NCBI GenBank assembly: GCA_009835395.1
Contig: VXXM01000014.1
Location: 3,091 to 67,090 of the forward strand
DNA: 64,000 bases
Direction of reading: 5' to 3'
From: Acidimicrobiia bacterium
GTDB taxonomy: Bacteria; Actinomycetota; Acidimicrobiia; Acidimicrobiales; CATQHL01
In this document: positions 29,393 through 37,298 of the stretch, in pieces
Layout of the letters: the number at the start of each line of letters is the position of its first letter
Position numbering within the stretch: position 1 is the first letter of the stretch
Notes under the pieces: generated by a model
Database searches by the model: none
What the model saw: only the letters and a program-made list of their open reading frames with translations
What the model was told of the DNA's origin: nothing
Program-made: the position numbers and the translations under genes

Positions 29393-29866
29393 TCACCCGC
29401 GGCGCTGCGCCCGCTCCGCGCTGACCGACTCGATGCGGCGCCGCAACTGGTCCAGCGCCGCCTGCATGATGCGCGACTCCGCCCGGCGCTTCACGAACCC
29501 GGGCACCGCCACCGCCAGTTCGGCCGCGAGCGAGTAGGTGATGAGGGTCTTGCCCTCGTCGTCGGCCGACGGCGCCAACTCGTACTCACCGTCCAGGTGG
29601 CGGACCTGGTCGCCCTCGACGAGCCGCCACGCCACCCGCAACGGGTTCGAGCCGTAGAAGTACTTGAGCGTGTAGGTCACGCTGCGGCCCATCGCCGCTG
29701 CCCGGAAAGCGACGAGACCGCCCGCACCGCTGTCGTCCCGCCGCAGCACGCGGGCCTCCTTGATGTCCGGCACCCACTGCGGGTACTGCTCGAAGTCCAC
29801 GACGACGTCGAAGCAGTCCGACGGCGAGGCGTTCACCAGCATCCGGCGCGTCGAGAACTCAACCAT
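29393..29866 (-). CDS. SRPBCC/START-fold (polyketide cyclase-like) protein
   Basis: DFEQYPQWVPDIK, LDGEYEL, VPGFVKRRAE. Confidence 0.85.
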   Translation of the reverse strand: MVEFSTRRMLVNASPSDCFDVVVDFEQYPQWVPDIKEARVLRRDDSGAGGLVAFRAAAMGRSVTYTLKYFYGSNPLRVAWRLVEGDQVRHLDGEYELAPSADDEGKTLITYSLAAELAVAVPGFVKRRAESRIMQAALDQLRRRIESVSAERAQRRG

Positions 29867-30332
29867 CTCGCCTCCGCGCGGTGTGCGGGGGCCGGCTGGG
29901 AAAGTCGCCGTGCCCCGCACCCCAGAGAGCTATCACGCCCAAGCCGTACACACCCGCAAGAATACCGAACGCGAGCGGTCCAAAGGGGCGAACCGCAGCG
30001 CCGGTGAGCCCGGCGGCGAACTGCAACCCGGCGGCGAGCCGCAACTCGGTGCGCACCGACCGGGGCGCCCCCGGCATTCCGATGAAGGCTGCCATCGTCG
30101 AGAGCTGCTCGGCACGGCTCCGGCGCACCGCCACGGCGTACGCCCGCCCGAAGGCGAGACTCCCTGCGCCGAACAGCGCCAGCGCCACGGCCTGGGCGGC
30201 CGTACCGGCTCGATCGGGCCACGCCGCACCCAGCACGATCGCAACACACAGCACCGCCGTGCCGACGCGGGAGGCCACGAGCAGCCACTGCCAGGGCGGA
30301 GCGTCACCCGCGGCGGGCGCCGGGGAACTCAA
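29859..30332 (-). CDS. Hypothetical membrane protein
   Basis: C-terminal part of ORF 29859..30773 with about four TM helices; TTG start overlaps the glycosyltransferase stop. Confidence 0.65.
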   Translation of the reverse strand: MSSPAPAAGDAPPWQWLLVASRVGTAVLCVAIVLGAAWPDRAGTAAQAVALALFGAGSLAFGRAYAVAVRRSRAEQLSTMAAFIGMPGAPRSVRTELRLAAGLQFAAGLTGAAVRPFGPLAFGILAGVYGLGVIALWGAGHGDFPSRPPHTARRRDG

Positions 30333-31483
30333 CTCAGGGCGCGGCACAGGTCCCCGGCCAGGTGGTCGTAGCTGAACCGCGCCTCGGCTCGCCGGCGCGC
30401 CGAGGCGCCCATACGGTGGCGCCGATCGGGATCGTCGAGCATCGCCGCCAGGCTGTCGGCGACCGCCGCGGCGTCGTCGGGATCGGTGACCACGAGCCCG
30501 CCGGTGCCGTGCTCGACGGCTTCGGCTGCTCCCCCGCTCTCGCCGGCCACCTGCGCCACCCCGGCGGCCGCCGCCTCCAGGAAGACGATCCCGAATCCCT
30601 CCTGCTCGAGGCCCGCCCAGCGCCGGCGGCACAGCATGGCGAACAGGTCCGCCGCGCCGTACAGCTCGGCCAACTCGCTCTCTGCGACCCGCCCGAGCAG
30701 GCGTGCGGGCGCGCCGGTCCGGCGAACGAGCCGCTCCAGTCTCCCGCTGTCCCTGCCCGCGCCGGCGATGCACAGGCGCAGACCGGGGCGGCCGGACGCC
30801 AGGCGGGCGACCGCCTCGATCAGCCTGTCGATGCCCTTGCGGGGCACCAGCCGGCTGACGCAGAGCACCAGGGTCTCACCGTCACCCACGCCGAGGCGGT
30901 GGCGCGCCGCCCGCCGCCGTTCGCCGGACAGCGGCACGAAGCGCTGGACGTCCACCCCCGGCGGCACGTAGTGATCCGGCGCCATGTCGGGGCACAGCCG
31001 CCGCGCCTCGCCGGCCGCGTAGCGGCTGGCGGAGATCACGACCTCGGCCCCCGCCAGAGTGCGCCGGAGTGCCCCGGCGGCGAGCGGCAGGCGCGCCGGA
31101 ACCGTCACCTCGGCACCGTGCAGAACGACCCCGTAGGGAACCCCCAGGCGCGGCCCCAGTGCGCCCACGGGGACAGCGGGGTCGAACACGACCAGTTCGG
31201 CGCCGGTGGATGCCAGCAGGTCGCGGATCTCCCCCAGCACCTTCGGCGTGGGCAGCAGGAAGGCGGCCGCGCTGCGCACGATGGGATACGCCTCGGTGGC
31301 GTCGAAGGCGGCGGCACCGGGGTGCGGGCGGGTCAGGACGCAGAACAGATCGGGGGGCAGCCGCCGCCAGAGTTCCCAGAGGTAGTTCTGGATCCCCCCG
31401 ACCTTCGGCGGGTAGTCGTTGGTGACCAGCAGGTGGCGGCGCGGGCGGGGCTCGCCGCCGGCTGCATCGGGCGGCTCGCTCAC
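30329..31483 (-). CDS. GT4 glycosyltransferase (PimB-like mannosyltransferase)
   Basis: LVTNDYPPKVGGIQ, VSRLVPRKG, EGFGIVFLEAAA. Confidence 0.9.
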   Translation of the reverse strand: MSEPPDAAGGEPRPRRHLLVTNDYPPKVGGIQNYLWELWRRLPPDLFCVLTRPHPGAAAFDATEAYPIVRSAAAFLLPTPKVLGEIRDLLASTGAELVVFDPAVPVGALGPRLGVPYGVVLHGAEVTVPARLPLAAGALRRTLAGAEVVISASRYAAGEARRLCPDMAPDHYVPPGVDVQRFVPLSGERRRAARHRLGVGDGETLVLCVSRLVPRKGIDRLIEAVARLASGRPGLRLCIAGAGRDSGRLERLVRRTGAPARLLGRVAESELAELYGAADLFAMLCRRRWAGLEQEGFGIVFLEAAAAGVAQVAGESGGAAEAVEHGTGGLVVTDPDDAAAVADSLAAMLDDPDRRHRMGASARRRAEARFSYDHLAGDLCRALS

Positions 31484-32598
31484 GAGTCGCCCGCCGGGCC
31501 GTCCCCGGGGCCGTCGCCCGGGTCGCCGCCCGGGCTGGCCGCGGGGGCGGCCGCGGGTACCGTCGCAATCTCCGGTTCCAGCCCCAGGCGCTGCGCCGCC
31601 CAGGTCGCGTGGCGGGCCAGCATCCGGTCGGGATGCCGCTGGTAGCGTCGCAGCGTCCCCACCACCTCGGGATCACTGCCGTCAGCGATGTTGCCCAGCA
31701 CAACGAGGGCGTTGCGCCGCAGGTAGCGCGGATCGCGGGCAGGGATGTACCAGCGCCCGTGACGCTCCATGAGTTCCTCGTCGGCGGCGCCCAACAGGTC
31801 CAGGACATCCACCGAGGCCTGCTCACCGACCTCCGCCGCCTCCGGCATGCGCCGGTTGGGCGGACAGACCTCCTGGCAGTCGTCACAGCCGTACAACCGG
31901 TCCCCGAGTGCTTCCCGGAACTCCATGGGGAAGTCGCCGGTGGCCTGCAGCAGCCATGCCAGGCAGCGGCGGGCGTCGACGACTCCCGCAGCGACGATCG
32001 CGCCCGTGGGGCAGCCGTCCAGGCAGCGCCGGCAGGGACCGCAACCGTCGGGTACCCGCTCGCCGGTGGGCGGCAGTGCCGCATCGGTGACCACCGATCC
32101 CAGCACCACCCAGCTTCCCGAGTTCTCCAGCAGGAGGTTGCTGTTCTTGCCGTAGTAGCCCAGGCCGGCCCTGCGCGCGGCCTCCCGATCCACCAAGGCG
32201 TTGTCGTCGGCCACGACGACGGTCCGGTACCCGTGATCGGCCAGCACCCGGGCGGCCGCGCCGAGGGCGGACCGCAGCGCGCCATAGACGTCATCGCTGG
32301 CGTAGCGGGCAACCCTGGCCACCGGACGACCCGGGACGGGCTCCGATGCCGTGGCGCGGGCATAGTCCAGCGCCCCCACCACCAGCGCGGCCGCCCCCGG
32401 GAGGATCCGTCCCGGGTCGGTGGAACGCTCGGGGTTGCGGTAGGTGAACTGCATGCCGCCGTGGTGACCCTGCGCCTTGCGGCGGTGGAGGATGCGCCGC
32501 GTGCTCTCGAACACCTCCACCGGCGCCACACCCACGGCGGCCAGCCCGGCTCGCCGCCCCGCCTCCAGAACCTCGCTTCGCAGACCCGCCGGCGGCAT
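31480..32598 (-). CDS. queG: Epoxyqueuosine reductase
   Basis: VARYA, DREAARRAGLG..GKN, CGPCRRCLDGCPTGA, DARRC, YGCDDCQEVCP, LRRNA. Start inferred at ATG 32598. Confidence 0.93.
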   Translation of the reverse strand: MPPAGLRSEVLEAGRRAGLAAVGVAPVEVFESTRRILHRRKAQGHHGGMQFTYRNPERSTDPGRILPGAAALVVGALDYARATASEPVPGRPVARVARYASDDVYGALRSALGAAARVLADHGYRTVVVADDNALVDREAARRAGLGYYGKNSNLLLENSGSWVVLGSVVTDAALPPTGERVPDGCGPCRRCLDGCPTGAIVAAGVVDARRCLAWLLQATGDFPMEFREALGDRLYGCDDCQEVCPPNRRMPEAAEVGEQASVDVLDLLGAADEELMERHGRWYIPARDPRYLRRNALVVLGNIADGSDPEVVGTLRRYQRHPDRMLARHATWAAQRLGLEPEIATVPAAAPAASPGGDPGDGPGDGPAGDS

Positions 32599-32738
32599 GT
32601 CCCCCGCCGGTTCGTGCCCGCTCGGGCGACGCACGACGCGCGACGGTGCGAGCCGCGCGGGACCGTCGTACCCCTCGATGCGTCCGGCCGTCACCGCCCC
32701 GAGCGTAGGCGTCACGGGCCCCTCGATGGCCTCTACCC

Positions 32739-35700
32739 CTACCCGGAGACCCCCACCGAGGGTGCCAGATCCAGGCGGGCTCGACGCCGCTGCTCGTAGA
32801 GACCGAGCGCGTGGAGGGGGAAGTACTGCCGGTACAGGCCGTAGTCCAGAATCGCCGTGCGGAAGAACACTCCGGCCCCGTCCTGCCGGGGCCATCCTCC
32901 AGCCGCGTCCTGGGTGTCCAGCAGGAATCGAGCGCCCTGGACGATCGCCGTCCAGTCCGAATCGTCCGCCTCGAGCAGCGCAAGCATCGCCCACGCGGTC
33001 TGGATGACCTGACTCTCGGTATGGGCGACGTAGCGACCGGCCAGGCAGCCGCTGTGGTGCTCACCCCATCCCCCGTCGGGCCGCTGGCGATCCAGCAGCC
33101 ACCGGCACGCCCGGCGCAGCGCCGGATCGCCGGGGCGGGCCCCCGCGGCAAGCAGACCTCTGACCCCGAAGAAGGTCCCGTAGATGAACTGAACGCCCCA
33201 GACACCGCGCCACGATCCGTCGCACTCCTGGGTCCGGCGGAGCCACGCCTCGCCCCGGGAGATCGCGCCCGTGACCTCCGGATCCGCGACTTCCGGGGAG
33301 TGCTCCCGGCAGGCGGCCAACGCGGCGAGGCAGGACGCGGTGCATTCGACATAGGAACGCTCGGTCATCGACTCGCCGAACATCTCGGCCGGATTCAGCC
33401 ACTCGAGGCCGACCGCGGAGCGCCGCGCTTCGTAGCTGCCGAACCCGCCGTCGCGGTTCTGGCCGCGCAGCATGAAGCGGACCGCGTCGCCGAGCACCGC
33501 CGCGCCCGCGGCCTCGCGGTCGCCGGCGATCAGCCCGAGCACCGCTTCGGCGGTGCAGTCGGTCACAGGCCAGCCGTGCCACCGCCCGGCGAGACACCAG
33601 CCGCCCTTCGGGTCGGTCCGGTAGGCCTCACCGAATCCTTCGAAGCTGGTATCGATCTGTTGCCGCCCCAGGAAGTCGGCCCCGCGGCGCAGTGCGCTCT
33701 CGGTACCGTCGAAGCGCGGCACGGTCGCCAGCGCCTGCAGGGAGAACCCGGTGTCCCACGAGGCGGTTCTGGCTCCGCTGACACGCGTCCCGCCCTCGGC
33801 GTCCTCCCAGATCCAGCCGTCCAGCCGCGCCAGAGCCTGCCGGCAGTCGCTGTCGTCGGGGTCGCGCAGCCACAGGGCGAGAATGTTGAGGAAGCCGCTG
33901 ACCGGCGAGATGCTCCGATGGGTGGTCGTCCGAAGTTCCCACCTGATGTGCCGGATCATCGACTCGGTACATCGGGCCCGTCGACCCTCGCTGTGGAACC
34001 GTTCGTACCACCGCGCAAGCCCGAGGCCGGCCCGGAGCCACACACCGGGTCGGGCGAAGAGATCGGCGTCCCGCAGGCGATTGCGACCGGCGGAGAAATC
34101 GACGTTGGCGTACCCCTGGGGAAACAACTCCTCCCGGATGGCGGCGACCACCGGCGTGACGGGGGCTCGGAAGCGAAGCGGGTAGACGGCCGCCATCGCC
34201 AAATAGATGAGCCGAGTGTGGCAGTACCACCTCGAAGGATGCAACGCCGTCCAGCGCGGCAGGCTCCACAGTTCCGGCAGAACGGCGTTGACGCCTCGCC
34301 AGTCGTAGAGGCCGACGAGCGCCAACCAGAACTTCCCCCAACTCGGGATGCCCAGAACCCCCTCTGCCTGCAGGAATCGCCGGGCCGGTTCGATCAGCGG
34401 GTCATCTCGCTCGACACCGAGCAATCGTGCCGCAACGTAGACGAGGGTGGTGACGAACAGCTGGGGTGGGGCGTGCTCGTGCAGACCCCACGAGCCGCCT
34501 TCGAGACGGGACCGCTCGAAGTAGCGCAGCACGAGCCGTCGGCGGTCCGCATCGAGCGGCCGTCCCAGAATGTGGTGCAACAGCACGTACTGCGCGGTGA
34601 GCATGGGACACCACGCCATCTCGCCCTCCCAGGCGCCGTCGGCGCCCTGGAGGCTCACCAACCGCGCGCTCGCGCTCCTGAGTGTCGGGCCGGCGTCAGG
34701 TGACGCGACCTCCTCCGGGCGGCTGGGCCGGCGGTCCCTGGTTCTCGACGGCATCGACACCAGGAAGCCGCGAGCCAAGGTGTCCCGAGCTCGCTCGTCC
34801 TTCTGTCCACCGGCGTGCCGCGCCCGACGCAGCAGCCGGATCCCGCGCAGGACCCAGCCGAGGCGAACCGCCAGGGCACGCACGGTCCCGTTGGCCTGAC
34901 GCCAGGCGGATCGGTCGCAGGATCTCGGAATCTCGCTGACCGCGGCACGGGCCGCCATCGCCCCACTGGCCAGCCCCAGGCTGGCTATCGATGTGTTCTC
35001 GCAGGCGAGCAAGCCGATCGTCCGGTCGCGGACCGCGGGACTCTCTCGCAAGCGCCGGTAGACCGTGTGCCTGAGCGCCACGGATTCGACCCGATGATCA
35101 GCGAAGATCTCGTACAGACCCATGGCGAGGAGTTCCGGTGCCCGGGTCGCCTGGAGCCGCCTCTTGGTGAAGTCGCGAAAGCCCCGCCCTTCGGCCAGTG
35201 TCAGGGCATCGCCGAAGCCGAGGGTCATCCCCACGGCCGTCAGCGGGTGGTAGTGCCCCGCGGCGTCCCCGATGAGGACTCGCCGTGGGCTCCCGTATGT
35301 GGCGCGCGGCCTCAGCGCATTGGCCGCGGCAAGGAATCTGCGCGCCCGCAGCGCTTCGACGAACGCAGGCCTCAGCACCTCCGGCATCCAGCCGGCATAC
35401 GAGTCCGACATCACGGCGACCAGGTCCCGCGGCGAGTGTCCCAACGGAACGTCGACGATCACCCGGACGGAATCCTCGCCCAGGCGATAGATGAGAATCG
35501 GCCCCGGTCCACCGCAGACCACGTGCCCGTAACCCTCCAGCGGCAGGCTCACCCCACTCAGTTCGATCCCCATCATCCGCGAGCAGTTGCTCGGGCTCGT
35601 CCAGAGACCCAATGATCGACGCACGACCGATGACCGCCCGTCCGCACCGACGATCAGCTCGGCCTTCAGGGATTCGTCGGTGCCATTGCGGGTGAACGTG

Positions 35701-36113
35701 ACCGAGTGGTCCTCGACCGCCCGCACACGCGCATGCAGCACGAAGTCGACCCCCGGCTCCTCCTCGACAGCTTCACGCAAGCGCGAGACGAGCACCTCGT
35801 GTTCGCACACCAAGCCGTGAGACCCGTCCGGGTACCGGAGCACGATCGGCTCCGACCGGTCCTCGGGGAATACCGCGAATCCCTTGCCCTTGGCGCTCCG
35901 CGGCTGCGTCTCGAGCCCTATCCCGAAATCTTGGAGTATGCGCACAGCGGGGGGATGCAGCCACTCGCCCGCAAGCCGTTTCGAAGTATTGGGGTTTGCC
36001 TCGAGCAAGGCCACCGAGGCGCCTCGACGCGCGTGAGCGAGCGCGCACAGGCTGCCTACCGGACCCGCGCCGACGACGGCTATGTCGTAGCTCGGGGCAG
36101 TGGTGCCGCTCAC
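32739..36113 (-). CDS. Squalene epoxidase (monooxygenase) - oxidosqualene cyclase fusion protein
   Basis: N-half: GAGPVG, RLAGEWLHP, GADGRSS, LIGDAAGHYHPLTAVGM (SQE/SQMO family). C-half: QW repeats (QGADGAW, QNRDGGF, QECDGSWRGVWG, QRPDGGWGE, QDAAGGW), IPSWGKFWL, PELW, WYCHTR, VTDCTAE, LNPAEMFG, YVECT, YRQYFP (OSC family). One uninterrupted frame. Confidence 0.9.
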   Translation of the reverse strand: MSGTTAPSYDIAVVGAGPVGSLCALAHARRGASVALLEANPNTSKRLAGEWLHPPAVRILQDFGIGLETQPRSAKGKGFAVFPEDRSEPIVLRYPDGSHGLVCEHEVLVSRLREAVEEEPGVDFVLHARVRAVEDHSVTFTRNGTDESLKAELIVGADGRSSVVRRSLGLWTSPSNCSRMMGIELSGVSLPLEGYGHVVCGGPGPILIYRLGEDSVRVIVDVPLGHSPRDLVAVMSDSYAGWMPEVLRPAFVEALRARRFLAAANALRPRATYGSPRRVLIGDAAGHYHPLTAVGMTLGFGDALTLAEGRGFRDFTKRRLQATRAPELLAMGLYEIFADHRVESVALRHTVYRRLRESPAVRDRTIGLLACENTSIASLGLASGAMAARAAVSEIPRSCDRSAWRQANGTVRALAVRLGWVLRGIRLLRRARHAGGQKDERARDTLARGFLVSMPSRTRDRRPSRPEEVASPDAGPTLRSASARLVSLQGADGAWEGEMAWCPMLTAQYVLLHHILGRPLDADRRRLVLRYFERSRLEGGSWGLHEHAPPQLFVTTLVYVAARLLGVERDDPLIEPARRFLQAEGVLGIPSWGKFWLALVGLYDWRGVNAVLPELWSLPRWTALHPSRWYCHTRLIYLAMAAVYPLRFRAPVTPVVAAIREELFPQGYANVDFSAGRNRLRDADLFARPGVWLRAGLGLARWYERFHSEGRRARCTESMIRHIRWELRTTTHRSISPVSGFLNILALWLRDPDDSDCRQALARLDGWIWEDAEGGTRVSGARTASWDTGFSLQALATVPRFDGTESALRRGADFLGRQQIDTSFEGFGEAYRTDPKGGWCLAGRWHGWPVTDCTAEAVLGLIAGDREAAGAAVLGDAVRFMLRGQNRDGGFGSYEARRSAVGLEWLNPAEMFGESMTERSYVECTASCLAALAACREHSPEVADPEVTGAISRGEAWLRRTQECDGSWRGVWGVQFIYGTFFGVRGLLAAGARPGDPALRRACRWLLDRQRPDGGWGEHHSGCLAGRYVAHTESQVIQTAWAMLALLEADDSDWTAIVQGARFLLDTQDAAGGWPRQDGAGVFFRTAILDYGLYRQYFPLHALGLYEQRRRARLDLAPSVGVSG

Positions 36114-36224
36114 CGGCTGATCCCCGCCGGCGGACGGCGGTCACGCGGGCAGAGGGCACGCAGCCGGCACGGTTTCTCGGGACCCGCCATCCGGCCACCG
36201 TAGTTCGGGGCCGCAGAGCGGGAG

Positions 36225-37298
36225 TCAGTGATCGTCGGCGAGGCCGCGGGACACCTCCACCCAGCGGGACAGCTTGACCGCCGCCGCTCCGCTGTCGAGC
36301 GCCCCCGCCGCCAGCCGCAGACCCGCGGGGAGGTCGGCGGCGAGATCACCCACGACGAGCCCGGCGGCGGCGTTCAGGCACACGATGTCCCGCCAGGGCA
36401 CGGCTTCGCCCGCCAGCAGCGCCTGAGTCGCCGCCACCCCCGCGGCCAAGTCCGCGCCGGCCAGATCGGCCAGGCCGACGGTCGCCAGGCCCAGCTCCTC
36501 CGGCGTCACGGCATAGCGCTCGATCCGCCCCTCGCGCAGCTCGATCACCCTCGTCGGCCCGATCGTGGACAGCTCGTCGAGGCGGGGATAGCCGTGCACC
36601 ACCATGGCGCGTTGCGTGCCGGTGACGGCCAGCACCTCCGCCATCCGCTCGGCCATGGCGGGGTCGTTCACCCCGATCACCTGGCGCCGCACGCCCGCGG
36701 GGTTCGCCATCGGACCGAGGTAGTTGAACGCCGTGGGTACGCCGAGGCTGCGCCGCGTCGGGCCGGCATGGCGCAGCGCCGGATGGAACAGAGGCGCCAG
36801 GCAGAAGGCGATACCGACCTGCTCGAGGCTGGCGGCGACGCCTGCCGGTCCTAGGTCCACCACCACACCGAGGGCCTCAAGGAGGTCGGCGGAGCCGCAG
36901 GCCGACGACACCGCACGGTTGCCATGCTTGCAGACCCGGGCACCGGCGCCGGCTGCCACGAGTGCCGCCATGGTCGAGATGTTCAGCGTGCCGCTGCCGT
37001 CGCCGCCAGTGCCGGCGGTGTCGATCAGTCCCATCGCCTCGGCGTCGACGTCGACCTCCAGCGCCGCCGCCCGCAACCCCTCGAGCAGCCCGGCCAACTC
37101 GGCGGCCGTCTCGCCCTTGGTGCGCAGGCCGATCAGCAGCCCCGCCATCTCGGCCTCGGAGGCCTGACCGGTCAGCATGGCGTCGGCCGCCGCCCGCGCC
37201 TGGACTCCCGACAGGTGCTCGCCCGCCACCAACGTCCTGAACAGTTCGGCGAAATCCAGCCGGCTGCCGGTGCTCGGGACGTCGGGATGCTCGGACAT
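36225..37298 (-). CDS. trpD: Anthranilate phosphoribosyltransferase
   Basis: KGET, DTAGTGGDG, NIST, KHGNRAVSSACGSAD, FHPA, LGPMANPA. Confidence 0.95.
   Translation of the reverse strand: MSEHPDVPSTGSRLDFAELFRTLVAGEHLSGVQARAAADAMLTGQASEAEMAGLLIGLRTKGETAAELAGLLEGLRAAALEVDVDAEAMGLIDTAGTGGDGSGTLNISTMAALVAAGAGARVCKHGNRAVSSACGSADLLEALGVVVDLGPAGVAASLEQVGIAFCLAPLFHPALRHAGPTRRSLGVPTAFNYLGPMANPAGVRRQVIGVNDPAMAERMAEVLAVTGTQRAMVVHGYPRLDELSTIGPTRVIELREGRIERYAVTPEELGLATVGLADLAGADLAAGVAATQALLAGEAVPWRDIVCLNAAAGLVVGDLAADLPAGLRLAAGALDSGAAAVKLSRWVEVSRGLADDH

Follow-up and report, generated by a model that had tools for sequence, protein, structure and literature searches.

A predicted squalene monooxygenase–oxidosqualene cyclase fusion protein in an Acidimicrobiales genome and its relatives among sponge-associated bacteria

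Can one bacterial polypeptide take squalene all the way to a protosterol? The question is raised by a locus in the metagenome-assembled genome (MAG) of an Acidimicrobiia bacterium (GCA_009835395.1), where a stretch of 64,000 nucleotides from contig VXXM01000014.1 (positions 3,091–67,090 of the forward strand; hereafter the window) contains a single open reading frame of 1124 residues plus stop. According to the open reading frame listing of the window and its translation, the coding sequence occupies 32739–36113 on the minus strand and starts with GTG at 36113. Its N-terminal part resembles squalene monooxygenase (SQMO) and its C-terminal part resembles oxidosqualene cyclase (OSC). We consider it likely that the gene encodes a functional, bifunctional SQMO–OSC enzyme of an Acidimicrobiales sponge symbiont, with both reactions, the identity of the product, attachment to the membrane and any channelling being predictions. 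Sterol synthesis in bacteria matters for the reading of sterane biomarkers, as in the sponge biomarker debate, and for ideas on where the eukaryotic pathway came from. A gene that alone leads from squalene to a protosterol would also make it easy to recognise uncultured sponge symbionts capable of sterol synthesis, would be useful in engineering, and would allow a natural test of whether a reactive epoxide is channelled between two membrane-surface enzymes once they are fused.

The two halves are readily distinguished in the 1124-residue protein. Pfam places SE (PF08491) at residues 150–309 (80 bits versus a cut-off of 20.1) and, far over their respective cut-offs, FAD_binding_3 at residues 9–307, SQHop_cyclase_N at 479–772 (168 bits) and SQHop_cyclase_C at 786–1107 (170 bits). 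Taking these matches together with those to structures 6c6n and 6c6r and with the coverage of stand-alone SQMOs, the squalene monooxygenase domain extends over residues 1–449 (34767–36113; this and all other features of the gene are on the minus strand) and comprises an FAD/substrate-binding core (residues 1 to ~310) and a C-terminal helical part (residues 295–449). The cyclase domain, delimited by Pfam, TIGR01787, 1w6k and the fold match, covers residues 475–1124 (32742–34691) and consists of alpha-alpha barrels with five canonical QW-type motifs, at residues 489, 885, 962, 1010 and 1068. Characteristic short motifs are GAGPVG (residues 15–20; 36054–36071), RLAGEWLHP (46–54), GADGRSS (156–162), GDAAGHYHPLTAVGM (282–296; 35226–35270) and DCTAE (852–856; 33546–33560). 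An earlier reading of the bare DNA letters (the original prediction) had proposed this frame, these motifs, including DCTAE at residue 852, and at least five QW repeats, and had expected SE or FAD_binding_3 together with SQHop_cyclase_N and SQHop_cyclase_C; the frame is confirmed, each motif lies at the residue claimed and all four domains are matched. Its central claim, that one polypeptide joins an epoxidase-type N-domain to an OSC-type C-domain, agrees with the best matches of the two halves, which are human SQLE and human lanosterol synthase.

A frame of this length could in principle have been created by misassembly. A word-indexed search of 5.8 billion proteins (8000 candidates scored, 1529 at E ≤ 0.001, 120 listed) returned the window's own protein (P0002) and its relatives; all 120 homologues among the matches listed are 1091–1168 residues long, are 68–100% identical and have SE as well as cyclase domains in Pfam. 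When one genome of each prokaryotic species was scanned, 524 stretches were found to encode a relative; the 80 best of them, analysed here, form with the window protein the 81-member family alignment to which the counts below refer. In all 80 loci a single uninterrupted tblastn alignment runs from query residue 12 or earlier to residue 1100 or later, and several of these loci come from records titled whole chromosomes. Contigs from public sequencing runs were aligned to 32400–36500: a 5606-nt contig of run X5, from an independent study, spans 33449–36500 without insertions, deletions or joints, and one of 1045 nt from run X4 is the same as the window throughout 34329–35373. The original prediction had named a stop or frameshift at the junction as the sign of an artefact. 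None is present, the public-run contigs cross the junction intact, and the two-domain form recurs in all 120 listed proteins and in all 80 genome loci. The idea of an assembly or binning artefact is rejected on the basis of the 80 continuous frames, the bridging X5 and X4 contigs and the retained junction length described below.

For the N-terminal half, a comparison of residues 1–475 with solved structures gives human squalene epoxidase (6C6N) as the best match, with an E-value of 8.8e-27 versus 2.1e-10 for the next protein. A Foldseek search with the predicted model agrees, with a TM of 0.82 for human SQLE (6c6r), 0.73–0.78 for p-hydroxybenzoate hydroxylases and 0.67 for PqsL. Sequence identity to human SQLE is 22–24%; stand-alone bacterial SQMOs are 50–68% identical and cover 95–100% of query residues 1–470. 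The FAD-binding fingerprints GAGPVG, GADGRSS and GDAAGH (GxGxxG, DG and GD, respectively) are all present and invariant in 81/81 members, including G15, G17 and G20 of the dinucleotide-binding motif and G282, D283, P290 and G295 of the GD flavin-binding motif. This conservation suggests that the N-domain epoxidises squalene. A hydrophobicity scan detects no transmembrane segment anywhere in the fused protein (maximum KD-19 1.36). The Arg-rich amphipathic helices that end the SQMO domain (residues 376–449; 34767–34988), identified by hydrophobic moment and by model helices H376–393, H401–434 and H437–449, are probably a membrane-interface element.

Over its last 649 residues the protein aligns with human lanosterol synthase (1W6K) at an E-value of 7.4e-129, versus ~1e-51 for squalene-hopene cyclases (SHCs), and the Foldseek match to human OSC has a TM of 0.84 (on target) and an rmsd of 2.3 Å at 35–36% sequence identity. 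The squalene/oxidosqualene cyclase model TIGR01787 is passed (489.7 bits versus a cut-off of 322.7) and the SHC model TIGR01507 is failed (256.9 versus 431.1). VTDCTAE, at residues 850–856, replaces the DxDD of SHCs. From the motif scan and the 1w6k alignment, D852 is the catalytic acid and corresponds to human D455, and C853 and C924 correspond to human C456 and C533. Residues equivalent to human H232, Y237, W387, D455, C456, Y503, C533, W581 and F696 are retained in 81/81 members; these are residues with catalytic roles in human OSC.

One further position speaks to the product. Human position 453, V850 in the window protein (33564–33566), is valine in 81/81 members. In the bacteria tested by Wei et al., V453 goes with lanosterol and I453 with cycloartenol, no exceptions being reported (PMC4919349; here and below, papers cited by PMC number are represented by the portions of their text available to us). 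Mohanty et al. take the same valine in MsbE as lanosterol-type (PMC7074536). From the valine at this position, our best guess is that the cyclase product is lanosterol.

How are the halves joined? A full-length AlphaFold2 model built from 63 fused sequences (mean pLDDT 85.7, pTM 0.64) is helical over residues 295–449, including a long helix at 401–434, and coil over residues 450–474, with pLDDT below 50 confined to residues 458–468. The original prediction had described an Arg/Pro-rich linker at residues ~400–475. The Arg-rich character stands, but the stretch is mostly structured: helices continue to residue 449, and the coil, a flexible tether, is limited to residues 450–474 (34692–34766). 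In alignments, stand-alone bacterial SQMOs (~460–480 residues), in which the Arg-rich helical part is also conserved, end opposite query residues ~456–475, and stand-alone OSCs start 20–35 residues ahead of query residue ~480. Thus the ends of the stand-alone proteins meet at the junction, which implies that the genes were joined head-to-tail with no linker added, and the supposed linker would be mostly the normal helical C-terminus of a bacterial SQMO, with ~25 flexible residues. The distance between conserved anchors on either side of the junction is 114 residues in 63/81 members and 110–120 in all 81, indicating that the tether is constrained in length.

Substitution patterns indicate that both domains are under purifying selection and are kept functional. 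Against seven members of the window's own clade, dN/dS is 0.10–0.17 for residues 1–375, 0.31–0.50 for residues 376–480 and 0.12–0.23 for residues 481–1124. In the comparison with one of these relatives, L021, the OSC part (window 32742–34670) has a dS of 0.136 and the SE part a dS of 0.51, a contrast that suggests recent intragenic recombination between close lineages.

Two questions about the family as a whole are (i) whether the fusion belongs to a single OSC lineage and (ii) how it came to its present hosts. For the first, an exhaustive HMMER search with the OSC domain against 1.84 billion 50%-identity representatives gave 5141 matches at E ≤ 0.001, of which 150 are listed. Six of the eight long representatives scanned with Pfam carry SE plus cyclase (P0242, P0243, P0246, P0247, P0249 and P0250); P0301 has no SE and P0308 is a squalene-synthase–cyclase fusion. 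A quick maximum-likelihood tree was built from 58 rows hand-picked from the 150 listed, with most of the domain covered and the genome's own SHC as outgroup; neither fragments nor hits in two stretches, such as P0250, were included. The query and the six fused representatives in the tree (the five other Pfam-confirmed ones and P0074, taken as fused from the protein-search listing) lie within one 11-row clade with an SH-aLRT of 100, and in this tree, which was drawn without named reference OSCs, the query groups with the OSC representatives and apart from the SHC. The fusion is confined to one OSC clade.

Two other arrangements were also found. P0308 (1022 residues) joins a squalene/phytoene synthase (residues 29–327) to a squalene/oxidosqualene-type cyclase (residues 388–1020), and pairs in the OSC tree with P0280 (852 residues). 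A metagenome scan with the closest unfused OSC, P0245, found a single locus, 54% identical (L104:118–4246), in which squalene synthase, HMG-CoA reductase and an unfused OSC follow one another with overlapping stops and starts and with no SQMO upstream.

For the second question, titles of the locus records label the 80 loci, which are mostly those of sponge symbionts, with 11 phyla: Pseudomonadota (41), Actinomycetota (13), Nitrospirota (7), Binatota (4), Acidobacteriota (3), Thermodesulfobacteriota (2) and, with one locus each, Verrucomicrobiota, Nitrospinota, Rhodothermota, Chloroflexota and Gemmatimonadota; five loci are unlabelled. The gene tree requires 11 changes of phylum label, the minimum being 10, and the Actinomycetota form one clade (support 99). 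Fused proteins from different phyla are 65–77% identical, in our judgement far more than vertical inheritance since the ancestor shared by these phyla would have left. A few old transfers among phyla, followed by vertical descent, would account for this pattern, with the proviso that MAG labels and bins are fallible. Within the window's class, none of 300 sampled other genomes matches at E ≤ 1e-100. In the same genus, 15 of 17 other genomes have the gene, one with an internal TGA and one with the gene split over two contig ends; the fusion occurs in none of three genomes from another genus of the family and in none of 20 from other families of the order. The internal TGA (G303:C1:650066–653407) is the lone in-frame stop of this fusion gene, which is 75% identical, and may reflect a pseudogene, a sequencing error or recoding.

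The source genome (3.16 Mb in 95 contigs, 94% complete) holds further candidate sterol genes, all outside the window. One contig (C25:17800–24900, equivalent to L016:8863–15847) encodes an SMT (Sterol_MT_C), a Rieske/KshA_C oxygenase, an MMPL transporter with a sterol-sensing domain and a P450, the latter being part of a 720-residue frame (L016:13685–15847) in which a GPP34 domain precedes the P450. Among solved structures this P450 comes closest to taxadiene hydroxylase (1e-23), and it is not of the CYP51 type. Two ERG4/ERG24 reductases lie on contigs C18 and C2, and the genome has four FA_hydroxylase and two 3Beta_HSD matches. Two of the FA_hydroxylase genes (sterol desaturase/ERG25-type) and a weak 3Beta_HSD match occur within 5 kb at C80:21900–26800, which may be a further sterol-modifying locus; the other two FA_hydroxylase genes are elsewhere. 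EBP was not found in the genome. A hopanoid cluster on contig C46 contains two SQS_PSY genes, an amine oxidase, a polyprenyl synthase, an SHC of 653 residues and a radical-SAM/DUF3463 (HpnH-like) protein. The description of the fusion as a minimal synthase in the original prediction does not hold for a genome that also has the SMT, the Rieske oxygenase, the sterol-sensing transporter, the P450, the two ERG4/24 reductases and a hopanoid cluster.

In most other lineages the fusion keeps closer company with such genes. An ERG24-like gene lies upstream of it in 61/80 loci and an SMT lies within the flanks in 52/80. In 60/80 loci, a P450 that shares 70% or more identity with the P450 of locus L031 is encoded on the same strand and ends at the start of the fusion; the L031 protein matches Methylococcus CYP51 with an E-value of 1.6e-102. 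Four of the 20 loci without this P450 have too little upstream sequence to judge. Kelly et al. reported ERG24–CYP51–LSS clusters in 115 of 537 Ircinia MAGs from 10 phyla (PMC9531527), and the ERG24–CYP51–fusion(–SMT) arrangement of most loci matches these clusters; the available portion of their text does not mention a fusion alongside them. In the window's genus, a canonical CYP51 is absent from 16 of the 17 other genomes, the three single-contig genomes having none at E ≤ 1e-20. It is found only in G315, where it adjoins the fusion. The pair of GPP34 and non-CYP51 P450 recurs within 8 kb of the fusion (GPP34 in 19/80 loci, with 22 P450 matches, some of them weak) and is an uncharacterised sterol-associated module.

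Several observations weigh against the favoured reading, a bifunctional enzyme that most likely forms lanosterol. The Pfam SE match spans just model positions 1–163 of 276. The top NCBIfam model of the cyclase, TIGR03463 (osq_cycl), reaches 733.7 bits where its cut-off is 851. In place of the T381 and C/Q449 known from eukaryotic lanosterol synthases, all 81 members have A381, next to an alignment gap, and H449, which is the cycloartenol-synthase state (PMC4919349). Position 98 is M in 76/81 and V in 5/81 members and also departs from the eukaryotic pattern, and position 444 (window residue 841; 33591–33593), F in 76/81 and in human OSC, is L in the window protein and four close relatives. Leucine at this aromatic position of the active site may alter the product outcome in the window's clade, and from the deviations at 98, 381, 444 and 449 together the product could differ from lanosterol. 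The pTM of 0.64 provides no confident domain–domain interface, and thus no structural support for channelling. The window's genome has no canonical CYP51 (best tblastn matches 22–30% identical over ~190–360 residues), which leaves the fate of a lanosterol product unclear. Four unfused rows (P0245, P0248, P0251 and P0263; stand-alone genes or truncated calls) lie inside the fused clade with poorly supported branching, so that a single origin with later fissions and several separate fusions are not separable. A full-text literature search, with most subscription journals outside its scope, found no biochemical assay of any fused member.

How far do these points favour other explanations? An enzyme that is bifunctional but makes cycloartenol, parkeol, an arborane-type alcohol, another triterpenol or a mixture is unlikely, although the departures at positions 98, 381, 444 (in the window's clade) and 449 and the TIGR03463 score are what it would predict. 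Positions 381 and 449, the other two eukaryotic markers, do not hold in bacteria, whereas V453 fully tracked lanosterol in those tested (Wei et al., PMC4919349) and is taken as lanosterol-type in MsbE (PMC7074536). Moreover, CYP51 stands directly ahead of the fusion in 60/80 loci and normally takes 14-methyl protosterols such as lanosterol. We think it very unlikely that the N-domain uses another substrate, forms 2,3;22,23-dioxidosqualene as well, or adds an epoxide to a longer or mero-terpenoid chain, in which case the pair would make a cyclised terpenoid that is not a sterol. The partial SE match, the ~24% identity to human SQLE and the presence in sponge holobionts of epoxide-derived merotriterpenoids of unknown origin (PMC5618424) would be in keeping with this, but SQLE is the best match both in sequence (8.8e-27 versus 2e-10) and in fold (TM 0.82 versus at most 0.78), the partner domain is a sterol-type OSC, and CYP51, ERG24 and SMT accompany the fusion in most lineages.

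Loss of function is a highly improbable explanation. One domain might be dead, leaving a single-step enzyme, or the gene might be decaying in a lineage that has no canonical CYP51, and the in-frame TGA of G303 and the leucine at 444 could be read in this way. However, the catalytic and cofactor residues checked are intact in 81/81 members, dN/dS within the clade is 0.10–0.23 in both domains, and 15 of 17 other genomes of the genus retain the gene, 14 of them in one uninterrupted piece, and just one of the 15 has an internal stop. To an artefact that merges two genes we assign almost no probability, in view of the 80 continuous species genomes, the junction-bridging contigs from other studies and the conserved junction length.

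The bifunctional SQMO–OSC enzyme that we favour could work as follows. Squalene would be supplied by the HpnCDE-type genes that lie beside the separate SHC on contig C46. The N-terminal FAD monooxygenase domain would epoxidise it with O2 to 2,3-oxidosqualene, and the cyclase domain, linked through the ~25-residue tether, would protonate the epoxide with D852 (VTDCTAE) and form most likely lanosterol. As one chain of two monotopic enzymes, the protein would ensure a 1:1 ratio and co-location at the membrane surface, and the fusion would probably limit escape or over-oxidation of the epoxide; channelling of substrate between the two domains would be a natural extension. The gene may have arisen from an adjacent or overlapping sqmo–osc pair, fused end to end with no added linker, and may have reached its present hosts by a few old transfers across phyla of sponge-associated bacteria, with vertical inheritance within the window's genus. 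A bolder proposal, which we offer tentatively and regard as doubtful, is that the genus has a sterol pathway that dispenses with CYP51. This pathway would draw on the SMT, the Rieske oxygenase, the GPP34-linked P450, the ERG4/24-type reductases and the sterol-sensing transporter, and would either end in 14-methylated, side-chain-alkylated lanostane-type sterols or use a new C-14 demethylase, with real channelling through a 25-residue tether of fixed length.

The host and habitat can be judged from relatives and from public data. Of the seven closest loci (84–90% identical), six bear the title of an Acidimicrobiales or Acidimicrobiia MAG and the seventh just that of a 'bacterium'; the actinobacterial host of the original prediction is borne out by these syntenic relatives. 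The G+C content of the window is 67–75%. The sequencing runs that hold at least one-fifth of the gene's sampled words are all sponge metagenomes, from three studies, and none of the listed runs holding the gene is RNA. Pieces at 99% identity or above were recovered from three of four runs tried, and many family members bear sponge-related names.

Around the gene, the window encodes housekeeping functions, and the fusion stands alone between trpD and a QueG-like gene. The flanks are common to the seven closest loci: TrpD and an FGGY kinase upstream (L021 has no match to either), and the QueG-like protein, GT4, SRPBCC, ROK, aminotransferase and PFK downstream. The QueG-like neighbour (31480–32601) has a Fer4_16 domain, and its synteny rests on conservation at the DNA level. 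Further downstream, at 29393–31483, an SRPBCC protein (Polyketide_cyc2, a lipid-binding fold) and a GT4 glycosyltransferase are syntenic in 7/7 close relatives; a link of this pair to sterol handling is pure speculation. A Shine-Dalgarno-like GGGGA (36121–36125) is located 7 nt upstream of the GTG start. A scan of 32300–36500 found no promoter-like sites and, within the coding sequence, two terminator-like sites versus 1.1 expected by chance.

The original prediction had raised the possibility that such fusions are undescribed. This is not the case, since many public MAGs carry the fusion and two papers mention it, one for msbE (PMC7074536) and one in its Methods (PMC10070321). Within the full-text literature searched, these two papers and a preprint of the latter are the only ones to do so, the available text of PMC7306690, PMC8237579, PMC12324236 and PMC13483135 containing no relevant mention. 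New here are the assignment of the fusion to one OSC clade, the end-to-end joint with a tether of conserved length, and the purifying selection in labelled members of 11 phyla. Also new is that, in the window's genus, the fusion lies outside the usual ERG24–CYP51 cluster in a genome with no canonical CYP51. This CYP51-less context of the genus is the most interesting remainder, together with the fact that fused members seem never to have been assayed.

Comparison with known systems places the window protein at successive distances. The closest is MsbE, from a sponge symbiont of another phylum, known by annotation (PMC7074536). It shares the order of epoxidase-N and cyclase-C in one gene, the lanosterol-type valine and the flavin-binding residues; msbE differs in being clustered with a sterol reductase, a lanosterol demethylase homologue, an oxidoreductase and a Rieske oxygenase. 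The 'Fused SMO/OSC homologs' of PMC10070321, found in metagenomes and MAGs and trimmed of their N-termini for tree building, have the same architecture and come from sponge symbiont metagenomes with SMTs, the fusion itself not being the subject of that study. Sponge-metagenome OSCs fall in bacterial OSC Group 1 (PMC10070321), where the window OSC might be placed by analogy only. In Methylococcus, Gemmata and myxobacteria, SQMO and OSC perform the same two reactions as two polypeptides, usually from neighbouring genes (PMC4919349, PMC7306690). Human lanosterol synthase (1W6K) and SQLE (6C6N/6C6R) are the nearest solved structures and have in common with the window protein the D–C pair, H232, Y503 and V453; the window protein differs from the human enzymes at positions 98, 381, 444 and 449 and in being without an N-terminal membrane anchor. 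SHCs, both that of the same genome (contig C46) and 2SQC, share the fold and the QW repeats, with DCTAE in the fusion instead of DxDD. The window protein adds to a family of fused proteins that many genomes of sponge symbionts encode and that earlier papers have noted.

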